From an uncultured bacterium (GTDB taxonomy: Bacteria; Krumholzibacteriota; Krumholzibacteriia; JACNKJ01), in contig CAVOFT010000001.1 in the NCBI GenBank assembly GCA_963695095.1, positions 1,024,001-1,088,000 of the forward strand: 64,000 nucleotides of DNA, written 5' to 3'. Positions 2,248-4,286 of the stretch are shown in pieces. The notes beneath the pieces are model-generated. The model was given only the letters and a program-made list of their open reading frames with translations, did no database searches and had not been told where the DNA came from. Position numbers and translations under genes: made by a program. Within the stretch, counting starts at the first letter, position 1. Every line of letters begins with the position of its first letter.

Positions 2248-4005
2248 ATGGCCGACGATTCCACGCAGGAAGGCATGACGCTGCCGCCCCGCTCGGCCGC
2301 GCTCGAGCGCCTGCTCGGCAAGCAGGGCGCGGCAGCAGCGCCGGCCCCAACTCAGGCCGCCGAGGCCGAGGGCTTCCCACCGGCCGCTGGCGGCGAAACC
2401 CTGGCCGATGACTGGGATCGCGAGCGCCTCCGGGGCCAGCTGCGGGTTGCCAGGGATCGCCTGGCCGAGCTCGAAGCAGTGGCCGTCTCCTATGGACGCC
2501 TGATCGGACTCCTGGAAGCCAATGCCGAGGTGCTGGTGGCCGGCGATGCCGGTGGCCTGCCCGCCCGCGTGCTGTCCATCGGCCTCGATCTCGTCGGCGC
2601 CGAGCGCGCCGCCTTCTTCCGCATCGGCAAGGACGGGGCCCTGCGGCCCGTTCTGACCCAGCCCGAGGGAGCGGAATTCAGCGCCATCAGCAAGTCGGTG
2701 GTGCGCGATGCCCTGGTGGAGAAGCGCAGCGTCGTCCACCAGGGGTCCGTGGCGCGCGAGGGCCTCGAGCGACAGAGCATTCTCGACCTGGATCTGGAGA
2801 CCGTCGTCGCCACGCCGCTCCTGGTGCGCGAGCGTCTGCTCGGCGTGCTCTATCTCGACGGTTCGCGCGCCGGCCGCTTTGGCCGGGCGGACGTGCCGGT
2901 GCTCGAGGTCTTCTCGCGGCTCGCCGCCGCGGCCATGCTGCGCCTCGAGGAGCTGGAGCAGGTCCGGGCCGCCAGCGCGCAGCTCGAGGACGAGAACCGC
3001 GAGCTGCGCAGCGCCCTGGGCGAGCGCACGCGCGTCGGGGGCATCCTGGCGGCGAGTCCGGCCATGCTGCGCGTCCTCGAACTGGTGCGGCGGATGAGCC
3101 GCTATCGCAGCTTCGTGCGCATCACCGGCGAAACCGGCACCGGCAAGGAGCTGATCGCCCGCGCGCTGCACACCGAGAGTCCCTGGGCCGATCAGCCCTT
3201 CGTGACCGTCAACTGCGGCGCCATTCCCGAGACGCTGCTGGAGGCGGAGCTCTTCGGCCATGTGAAGGGCTCCTTCACCGGCGCCATCGCCGATCGCGCC
3301 GGCCTCTTCGAGCAGGCGGATGGCGGCACGCTCTTCCTCGACGAAATCGGGGACATGTCCGAGGCGCTGCAGGCCAAGCTGCTGCGCGTGCTCGATAGCG
3401 GCGAGGTGGCCCGGATCGGCGGCCAGGGCAACCTCAAGGTGGACGTGCGCGTCATCACCGCCTCGCACGCGGATCTCAAGCAGCGAGTGGCCGCCGGTAG
3501 CTTCCGGGAAGACCTGTTCTATCGCCTCAATGTGCTGGCCATCGAGCTGCCTCCGCTCCGCGAGCGGCCCGAGGACGTCGCCCTCCTCGCCGAGTACTTC
3601 CTCGATCGCTACGCTGAGCGGCTGGGCCTGCCGCGCCCGCGTTTGGCTGCGGCCGCGCTGCGCCGCCTGCAGCGCCAGCCCTGGCCGGGCAACGTCCGCC
3701 AGCTCGAGAAGTGCATCGAGAGCAGCCTGGCGCTCTCGGAAGGTGGGGCCTTGCTGCGCGACGAAGATCTGGCCCTCGATGCCCCGGCCTCGGACTCGAT
3801 CGCGGCCCTTGCCGCTGGCCCCGACAGCGAAACCCTCAAGAGCCTGCTCCTGCGCGTGGAGCGCGAGAAGGTCGCCCGCACCCTGGAGGATTGCGGAGGG
3901 CGCGTCACGACCGCGGCCCAGCGGCTCGGCATCTCCAGGCAGCATCTGCACAAGCGCCTGGGGGACCTCGGCCTCCGCCAGTCCGGCGGGAAGGCAAAAT
4001 CGTAA
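2248..4005 (+). CDS. sigma54-dependent enhancer-binding protein (GAF + AAA+ + Fis-type HTH)
   Basis: GAF region (...[19 protein letters not shown]), Walker [52 protein letters not shown]-terminal [16 protein letters not shown]. Confidence 0.93.
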
Positions 4006-4105
4006 ACATATGGCGACATTGTGACGCTGAAGGCTGTCGCACCTAATCGCATGATTTTATGCAGGTTATGTCCGATCGTCGAGATATGTCGCCTATTGTT
4101 TACGA
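4000..4105. promoter_or_regulatory. pair of inverted candidate upstream activator sequences (UAS)
   Basis: 4001-4019 CGTAAACATATGGCGACAT and 4086-4104 ATGTCGCCTATTGTTTACG are reverse complements at 16/19 positions; extra TGTCGC half-site at 4035-4040; about 110-215 bp upstream of a sigma54 promoter. Confidence 0.55.
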
Positions 4106-4150
4106 ATGCCAACTCCGACTCCACCTCCATTGCGCTCGCGATCGAGATCT

Positions 4151-4163
4151 TAACCCACTGAAA
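4151..4163 (-). promoter_or_regulatory. IHF-like binding site between UAS and sigma54 promoter
   Basis: Minus strand TTTCAGTGGGTTA versus consensus WATCARNNNNTTR (1 mismatch); a second similar site AATCATGCGATTA at 4044-4056. Confidence 0.35.
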
Positions 4164-4214
4164 CATAGCGAGTTATGGCCTCTCTCCCGTTTCGGAAGCG
4201 ATGCGTAAGCTTGC

Positions 4215-4230
4215 GGGCACTCCGGTTGCT
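4215..4230 (+). promoter_or_regulatory. sigma54 (-24/-12) promoter
   Basis: GGGCAC-TCCGG-TTGCT matches TGGCAC-N5-TTGCW except for the first base, with exact GG-N10-GC spacing; lies between the activator gene and two small ORFs. Confidence 0.75.
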
Positions 4231-4286
4231 CTAGGAAGGGTGACGACCTTCGGGGCGATTCGAGGACACCAACGGGAGGCAATGCA

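Follow-up and report, generated by a model that had tools for sequence, protein, structure and literature searches.

A sigma54 activator unit with TKTWW micropeptides in Candidatus Krumholzibacteriota and its possible link to MASE9 phosphodiesterases

Introduction

Promoters of the sigma54 class require an enhancer-binding protein about 80-200 bp upstream, often together with bending by IHF. Here, we describe a unit of this kind in a 64,000-nucleotide stretch of DNA (the window, G000:C1:1024001-1088000) from an uncultured bacterium of the phylum Candidatus Krumholzibacteriota, whose genome is 93.5% complete. In this unit, the gene of a GAF-AAA+-HTH activator is followed by paired activator sites, a -24/-12 element and the genes of two very short peptides with tails of the TKTWW type. 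The closest described systems on the regulatory side are the GAF-type sigma54 activators NifA, NorR and FhlA with their upstream activator sites and IHF. The window shares with them the domain order, loop 1, the paired palindromes, an IHF-like site and the -24/-12 element, and differs from them in that its output consists of micropeptides instead of an enzyme operon and that the protein scores below the family cut-offs. The set of activator and promoter is thus an ordinary GAF-type sigma54 system, and the micropeptide output is what is unusual.

On the side of the output, SafA and MgrB are small membrane-protein connectors or modulators acting on PhoQ. As in these systems, a very small membrane protein would be made under the control of a regulator and would, as proposed here, adjust another signalling enzyme of the membrane; unlike SafA and MgrB, the window and its relatives would use sigma54 control and predicted products of 20-45 amino acids (aa) with repeated K-x-x-W tails, and the proposed target is a cyclic di-GMP (c-di-GMP) phosphodiesterase with a pocket like that of the S components of energy-coupling factor (ECF) transporters. 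In ComRS/XIP of streptococci, the gene of the regulator is likewise succeeded by that of its own short peptide, which has a WW motif at the C-terminus (PMC5131902). The ComRS receptor is a TPR-type RRNPP protein of Gram-positive bacteria, whereas the window encodes a GAF-AAA+ sigma54 activator in a diderm phylum, where export and feedback are hypothetical. The proposed target belongs to the same family as Thermotoga maritima TM1467 and Streptomyces venezuelae HdgA, which the accessible part of the MASE9 description gives as MASE9-HD-GYP phosphodiesterases (10.1101/2021.11.05.467447). A literature search in which subscription journals were largely uncovered returned no description of peptides of the TKTWW or KTWW type.

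Results

Conservation of the enhancer and the sigma54 promoter

The enhancer behind the activator gene almost certainly drives the TKTWW peptides. Its elements are, in window coordinates:

4001..4018, no strand assigned: upstream activator site 1, from the inverted-repeat search and matrices
4044..4056, no strand assigned: distal IHF-like site, 8/9 here and 5-9/9 in 8 relatives, weakly conserved
4087..4104, no strand assigned: upstream activator site 2, at a distance of 86 bp from site 1 and of 129 bp from the downstream -24 GG
4151..4163, no strand assigned: proximal IHF-like site, 8/9 here, best site 7-9/9 in 8 relatives, visible in the alignment
4215..4230, plus strand: sigma54 -24/-12 element GGGCAC-N5-TTGCT, with GG at 4216-17 and GC at 4228-29, kept in 8 relatives

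A preliminary description of this DNA had proposed the same layout, and our analysis recovered it. The inverted 19-bp sites, 4001-4019 and 4086-4104, are 16/19 complementary and form the longest inverted repeat in 3950-5100, both IHF-like sites agree at 8/9 positions with the IHF consensus, the -24/-12 element lies where it was predicted, and the region is indeed AT-richer, with a G+C content of 52% in 4006-4240 against 71% in the activator gene.

We compared the locus across families labelled f1-f9, where f1 (12 genomes) is the window's own family and includes the genus g3. The matrices for the sigma54 element and the sites were trained on 8 orthologous loci only, with the window's genome excluded, and the paired sites in f1 loci were chosen by consensus score. 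The activator was found in 11 of the 12 f1 genomes. Eight of these 11 keep the two 18-bp sites, the IHF-like site and the -24/-12 element, and in these eight the activator is followed by the sigma54 element and one to three TKTWW peptides; the conservation across orthologous loci that had been suggested as a check thus holds for sites, spacing and -24/-12 element alike. The sites are 85-87 bp apart in all 8 training loci, and the distance from site to GG is 128-129 bp in six of them and 116-117 bp in two. Genome-wide, promoter and site pair of the window score 46.4 and the next of 350 sigma54-like positions scores 20.8, so that a second target of like strength is not evident in the genome. Scored against about 3.6 million positions of the plus strand, sites 1 and 2 take 6th and 7th place.

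A transcription start had been predicted near 4241. Twenty metatranscriptome runs contained a small share of 3900-5100, and in all four runs examined (from four studies) the RNA contigs have their first positions, 4253, 4258, 4259 and 4263, a short way downstream of the predicted start, which gives a weak hint at its position from contigs that are unstranded and without a DNA control. Together, these contigs cover 4253-4577 and 4666-4850, and in the same four runs the enhancer, the activator and the atp genes were uncovered except for short partial pieces; the runs had been found by means of 3900-5100 itself, and the contigs cannot rank genes. Further downstream, a TTGATT-17-TATCCT sequence at 4953-4981, which lies below the threshold of the promoter scan and looks alike by eye in relatives, resembles a sigma70 promoter for the atp operon and suggests that the atp genes are independent of the sigma54 unit.

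The activator protein

The activator gene and its upstream region comprise:

2156..2173, no strand assigned: third activator-type site beside the activator's own promoter, genome rank 8, with a score like both enhancer sites
2188..2216, plus strand: sigma70-type promoter of the activator, TTGACA-17-TACACT, 10/12 matches; 2 sites found against 0.3 expected
2248..4005, plus strand: GAF-AAA+-HTH enhancer-binding protein, 585 aa, loop 1 GSFTGA, identified by Pfam; orthologue clade across families (97/91)

The reading of the frame that ends at 4005 as a GAF-AAA+-HTH activator was confirmed by Pfam, which assigns GAF, Sigma54_activat (E 4e-68) and HTH_8 domains. The AAA+ domain scores 228.8 bits with PF00158 and carries the Walker motifs GETGTGKE and TLFLDEI. 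Its loop-1 motif is GSFTGA as compared with GAFTGA in 12/12 family orthologues; GSFTGA is listed among the variants expected to retain activity (PMC4641369). The protein remains below every NCBIfam family cut-off, with NifA and NorR as the top NCBIfam scores, and Pfam returned no TPR domain, the sensor domain being GAF. The sites do resemble a TyrR-type box, as remarked earlier, but the protein is not TyrR (281.6 bits against a cut-off of 576). Its HTH domain is of the Fis type, and the conserved upstream palindromes lie 80-250 bp from the promoter. The host genome contains rpoN, about 18 strong sigma54-activator matches and five IHF/HU-type matches.

The third activator-type site suggests that the activator controls its own gene; a similar site occurs upstream of the activator in L002, L003, L004 and L118, and autoregulation through 2156-2173 is probable. 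Elsewhere (G000:C1:589835-590237, 1318249-1318999 and window ~7965), a sigma54 activator, a UbiA gene and the end of atpH appear to be frameshifted, possibly through errors of assembly.

Short peptides and the 3' region

Downstream of the promoter, we annotated the following features, where SD denotes a Shine-Dalgarno sequence and ORF an open reading frame:

4287..4361, plus strand: peptide 1, 24 aa, hydrophobic N-terminus and TKTWW twice; SD GGGAGG at 4274-4279
4434..4511, plus strand: peptide 2, 25 aa, hydrophobic N-terminus and TKTWWKTWW; SD AAGGAGG at 4421-4427
4524..4640, plus strand: hairpin run, the first hairpin with a C-rich loop; possible small RNA (sRNA)-like or stabilising 3' region, kept in 5 loci
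4672..4800, plus strand: third small ORF, 42 aa, TTG start; basic N-terminus, hydrophobic helix and tail K-x-(R/L)-W

The small-peptide output was foreseen in the preliminary description, which spoke of two 25-aa peptides; the lengths are 24 and 25 aa, and a third ORF of 42 aa has to be added. Conservation identifies peptides 1 and 2 as coding genes. All 39 collected peptide genes have SD, start, frame and tail, the N-terminal hydropathy is 1.4-2.7 in 24 sigma54-type copies, native TKTWW-type peptides measure 20-29 aa, and the variable columns in 11 leader copies (see below) split 9/1/12 over codon positions 1/2/3. As short conserved ORFs with one hydrophobic segment under a dedicated regulator, they have the features of small membrane proteins. 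Nine of 10 loci examined have the third ORF, always with L21, L25, L28, K37 and W40, and RNA contigs extend over it in 2 of 4 runs. No family was found for the peptides in Pfam or NCBIfam, and a search of the ESM Atlas with the third ORF gave no usable match. When the genome was scanned for short ORFs that are led by an SD and end in K/H-hydrophobic-x-W, 6 matches resulted, of which the 4 hydrophobic ones are peptides 1 and 2, the third ORF and a leader peptide of the MASE9 gene. Among 43 matches of a metagenome pattern scan, 11 are SD-led peptide genes by script and most others chance.

We also considered the invariant TKTWW codons as an RNA motif and set this aside as mostly codon context, Thr before Trp being ACC in 91% of 421 genomic cases. 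The first Thr of TKTWW is ACC in 39/44 copies, which are related and in part found by exact pattern, against 58% expected. The hairpin run at 4524-4640 shows few compensatory changes; its model locates the corresponding place in L005 and L007 and gave no match to the g3 units described below, so that homology of the latter to the 3' hairpins was not found. Rfam returned nothing at gathering score for the window region, g3 and leader loci. A maturase or transporter gene, as in clusters for ribosomally synthesised and post-translationally modified peptides (RiPPs), was found neither in the window unit nor in the f5, f7 and f8 units.

A TKTWW leader peptide before the sole MASE9-HD-GYP gene

The genome's only other TKTWW peptide, MFKFIIDLFFGDLLLTKTWW, is encoded 1.48 Mb from the sigma54 unit at C1:2503930 on the minus strand, directly before the sole MASE9-HD-GYP gene (G000:C1:2502526-2503815). 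The protein scores 33 bits with PF20972 (cut-off 24.3) and has an HD_5 domain and an intact HHExxDGxGYP motif, and the host genome has 2 matches to diguanylate cyclase domains. A TK(T/V)WW leader precedes the MASE9 gene in 11 of 12 f1 genomes. This occurrence of the same tail before a distant gene points to a partner outside the sigma54 locus and does not agree with the earlier view of a self-contained signal-to-peptide module. Neither is the unit dedicated to the peptides in the strict sense, as 3 of the 11 f1 genomes with the activator, those of genus g3, have the activator and sigma54 sites without peptides, a situation that the preliminary description had named as speaking against its proposal.

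The leader is preceded by a sigma70-like promoter, read by eye, and two AGCGNAGCG repeats. A 12-bp helix, 6 pairs of which show compensatory changes, surrounds its ORF, and the 3' arm of this helix shares sequence with a possible hairpin that would cover the ribosome-binding site (RBS) of the HD-GYP gene. The same layout of AGCGNAGCG repeats and ORF-enclosing helix was found in f2 (10/10 regions read) and f6 (4/4), where the tails are K/R-W/F-E-W and K/H-I/V-K/R-W, for example KWEW and KIKW; three of the f6 ORFs were read by eye. In f4, f5, f7, f8 and f9, a W-ended leader of the f1/f2 kind was not seen before MASE9. The leader RNA (L014:9790-10045, minus strand; G000:C1 ~2503800-2504040) carries an anti-SD between the AGCGNAGCG copies and has no Rfam match. 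TRAP-type attenuation, considered for the 5-nt period of the repeats, was rejected, as no TrpBP was found in the 93.5%-complete genome.

A sigma54-like element lies 82-113 nt upstream of 34 of the 77 scored MASE9-HD-GYP genes (L158-L237, from families without the leader). Direct control of MASE9 genes by the activator was nevertheless discarded, since none of the 34 has an f1-type site 40-220 bp upstream (control, 19/325 windows), and these elements are apparently served by another activator. L090 has a single consensus activator site closer to the MASE9 gene. Two further observations concern the neighbourhood: a 286-aa protein without Pfam match (L014:10087-10947, minus strand) precedes the MASE9-HD-GYP gene in nearly all phylum regions read, and, in the host genome, a different sigma54 activator (L014:5863-7368, minus strand) lies two genes after it, in the place that the peptide unit and the orthologous activator occupy in f5 and f8.

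The module in other families

The activators of f4, f7, f8 and f9 form one clade with the window activator (97/91) in a tree of the AAA+ domain with 38 rows, in which row L012 is the wrong paralogue, L013 is missing and 14 of the approximately 18 own activators are included; for the f5 proteins, an activator of this clade is the best match. These five other families again have the module together with a tandem K-x-x-W peptide, also where it has moved away from the activator. In f5 and f8, a site pair 89-102 bp apart, a sigma54 element and a peptide ending in GKSVW-GKSVW lie just upstream of the activator, in the gene order MASE9-HD-GYP, purM, one gene, sigma54 peptide, activator. The GKSVW pattern occurs in 30/33 f4, 9/9 f8 and 1/1 f9 genomes, and the 30 GKSVW loci fetched comprise 21 hydrophobic peptide genes and 9 chance matches. 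Fourteen loci with a script-placed start include 13 with at least 2 sites and 10 with a sigma54 element. The tails are GKAVW or GKAIW in f7 and GKSIW followed by GNSTW repeats in the f5 genus g13, and repeats reach 3-4 copies. The activator gene itself directly follows a sigma54 promoter of this type in some genomes of f4 and f8.

Fifteen genomes outside f1 carry activator and MASE9 gene on the same contig, and in 14 of them the distance between the two is 4.6-16.9 kb; a further 15 genomes have them on different contigs. FHA-type matches were left out of this count. MASE9 is present wherever a leader-type or sigma54-type peptide was found; in f3, there was no MASE9 (0/5) and no tandem peptide (0/5). 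In f2 and f6, a GKSVW-type tandem was not found, and searches for the activator gave 0/71 and 0/10 with the f8 query and 1/61 and 0/9 with the f1 query, both of which miss known orthologues. Lineages provide the peptide in cis, in trans or both: G005 has it in trans only and genus g3 in cis only. A second, unlinked peptide unit with sites, IHF-like repeats and sigma54 element kept is found in L035 (G008, 1400-1950), and an orphan peptide unit away from the activator in L138. A further peptide copy with a complete enhancer in front of it, at L247:1214 (G119), is apparently frameshifted, with GKSVW out of frame. In f4 (L278-L301), the GKSVW peptide gene is usually followed by a gene of the UbiA prenyltransferase family.

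In genus g3, the recognition helix and the activator sites are both changed, and two sigma54 elements drive units without evident ORF (L009:3290-3850, L011:3295-3880 and L010). These units are highly conserved in three genomes, with C-rich loops, anti-SD-like CCUCC and U-tailed terminators, and are candidate sigma54-dependent sRNAs. The sole TKVWW in g3 is that of the MASE9 leader.

Structural models of MASE9

The MASE9 model (predicted local distance difference test 79) has the fold of ECF S components, with NikM as the best match (Z 15.6, root-mean-square deviation 3.2 over 189 residues) and Z values of 11-16 against 14 S components. NikM and CbiM share this fold, and a peptide loop occupies and fills the pocket of NikM in the account available (PMC3945884). 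S components are transporter subunits that bind metals or vitamins, whereas MASE9 is fused to an enzyme and its pocket filler would be a separate peptide. Three acidic residues of the membrane helices, D49, E85 and E93, do not vary among 48 MASE9 sequences, and the Lys of the peptide could pair with them. Complex prediction with MASE9 and residues 11-42 of the third ORF gave scores of 0.28 and 0.22 (mark 0.32), values that count neither for nor against an interaction.

Discussion

Our analysis places a conserved sigma54 unit and a distant MASE9-HD-GYP gene under a common peptide tail. We give roughly even chances to the view that the peptides are membrane partners or ligands of MASE9 and link a GAF-sensed signal to c-di-GMP. 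In such a pathway, the GAF domain would sense a signal, and the activator would bind the two palindromes, which are spaced by about 86 bp, and open the sigma54 promoter near 4241 with the help of DNA bending by IHF, a mechanism taken from established biology of bacterial enhancer-binding proteins and consistent with the conserved sites. The transcript would yield the two peptides of 24-25 aa and probably also the 42-aa one. The hydrophobic peptides would then enter the inner membrane and present their K-x-x-W tail, often repeated, to the MASE9 domain, and contact with the tail would change the activity of the MASE9-HD-GYP phosphodiesterase in either direction. The MASE9 leader may serve as a basal, translationally gated supply and the sigma54 unit as an inducible supply in trans. 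A more specific version, which we hold to be possible and rather doubtful, makes MASE9 a peptide receptor, in which the K-x-x-W tail of a micropeptide encoded in the genome, either anchored in the membrane or released as repeated pentapeptides, occupies the pocket of the ECF S-component fold; the sigma54 unit would be the inducible source of this ligand.

Several lines of evidence point to MASE9 as the partner. The two peptide types differ in origin, the leader type sharing its layout with f2 and f6 and the sigma54 type sharing activator, sites and tandem tail with f4, f5, f7, f8 and f9. That peptides of separate origin both end in TKTWW in f1 is expected if both address one partner, and that the tails differ between families argues for one evolving protein partner. 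Moreover, supply appears complementary, with a sigma54 peptide and no leader of the f1/f2 kind seen in f4, f5, f7, f8 and f9, and a leader and no activator found in f2 and f6. The position of the only other TKTWW peptide before the only MASE9 gene, the close linkage of activator and MASE9 gene outside f1, and the S-component fold with its invariant acidic residues point the same way. The description of MASE9 expects ligand binding inside the membrane, and no ligand is named in the passages available (10.1101/2021.11.05.467447).

Other observations weigh against this interpretation. Binding of the peptides to MASE9 and a change in its activity are proposals from genomic association, and since kin share traits, the complementary pattern rests on about nine lineages and not on 150 genomes. 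None of the 10 f1 relatives was recovered with the f8 query, nor were the orthologues in G015 and G025 with the f1 query, so that the absence of the activator from f2 and f6 can be taken as 'not found' only, and weak matches to the f8 query occur in 2 of 5 f3 genomes, which lack MASE9. Housekeeping genes (argS, purM) lie within the 5-17 kb that separate activator and MASE9, and f1 has lost this linkage. Furthermore, the tail is not strictly invariant, with N for K in GNSTW and extensions after W, the interpretation presupposes a topology for the peptides and an orientation of the MASE9 pocket in the membrane, and the common fold of MASE9 and S components shows no function.

A second explanation is an autoinducer loop like that of ComRS, where the peptide, or pentapeptides cut from its repeats, would act in turn on the neighbouring activator, either via GAF or via a sensor not recognised here, and perhaps between cells. 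The peptide gene adjoins the activator in f1, f5 and f8, an activator site lies at the activator's own promoter, in f4 and f8 the activator can be read from a sigma54 promoter of this type, tail repeats reach 3-4 copies, and type II ComS combines a WW motif with a positive loop in the passages available (PMC5131902). We nevertheless consider such a loop rather unlikely: the sensor is GAF and not the TPR of RRNPP receptors, the same tail on the MASE9 leader would be unexplained, as would the f2 and f6 leaders, where the activator was not found, and the leader peptides, as short amphipathic helices that contain acidic residues, do not look like export signals.

Another common partner could read the tail, such as a modifying enzyme, a peptidase or an exporter, with MASE9 as a mere neighbour or indirect target. 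A RiPP-like modification, for example Trp prenylation or a Lys-Trp cross-link, would suit the layout of a leader plus repeated core, the retention of just K and W, and the UbiA prenyltransferase gene that usually follows the f4 peptide gene. However, this neighbour is restricted to f4, the units of f1, f5, f7 and f8 are without enzyme or transporter gene, and the unit moves without any enzyme in L035 and L138, which makes this explanation improbable.

We assign a similarly low, if anything slightly lower, probability to an action as RNA or nascent chain, in which the leader is a ribosome-stalling or coupling upstream ORF that gates the HD-GYP RBS in cis, and the sigma54 transcript is an RNA (sponge or sRNA) or a decoy for a reader of the nascent tail. 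The 12-bp helix around the leader ORF, with its six compensated pairs and its overlap with the RBS hairpin, agrees with this, as do the C-rich-loop hairpins after peptide 2, the two conserved units without evident ORF that the g3 activator drives, and the presence of csrA in the genome. In contrast, SD, start, hydrophobic stretch and frame are kept in each trans copy (39 peptide genes), the near-invariant codons are largely codon context (ACC, as above), GKSVW copies vary freely at synonymous sites, and a tail that differs by family fits an evolving protein partner better than the ribosome. Gating by the leader RNA can coexist with a role of the peptides as MASE9 partners. Finally, generic membrane-active stress peptides (type I toxin-like or modulators of proton-motive force, possibly acting on the F-ATPase encoded downstream) would also be hydrophobic, rich in Lys and Trp and tightly switched, next to the atp operon as in f1, and are very improbable given that this neighbourhood is restricted to f1, that the strict tail implies a specific partner and that an antisense copy of the motif was not seen.

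Overall, the unit uses a 585-aa, ATP-driven activator mainly for peptides that are missed by gene callers, and in g3 the same activator seems to be rewired to non-coding units. MASE9 sensors are widespread, and their description names no ligand in the passages available, the word 'peptide' being absent from its main text (10.1101/2021.11.05.467447); the peptides described here are good candidates for the MASE9 input. They offer short ligand candidates that can be synthesised, TKTWW for the host enzyme and GKSVW, GNSTW, KWEW and KIKW for other clades, with specificity controls built in. If MASE9 is indeed a peptide receptor, these micropeptides would represent a class of peptide-to-c-di-GMP signalling in diderm bacteria, possibly from cell to cell, and would provide an input for the whole MASE9 family.

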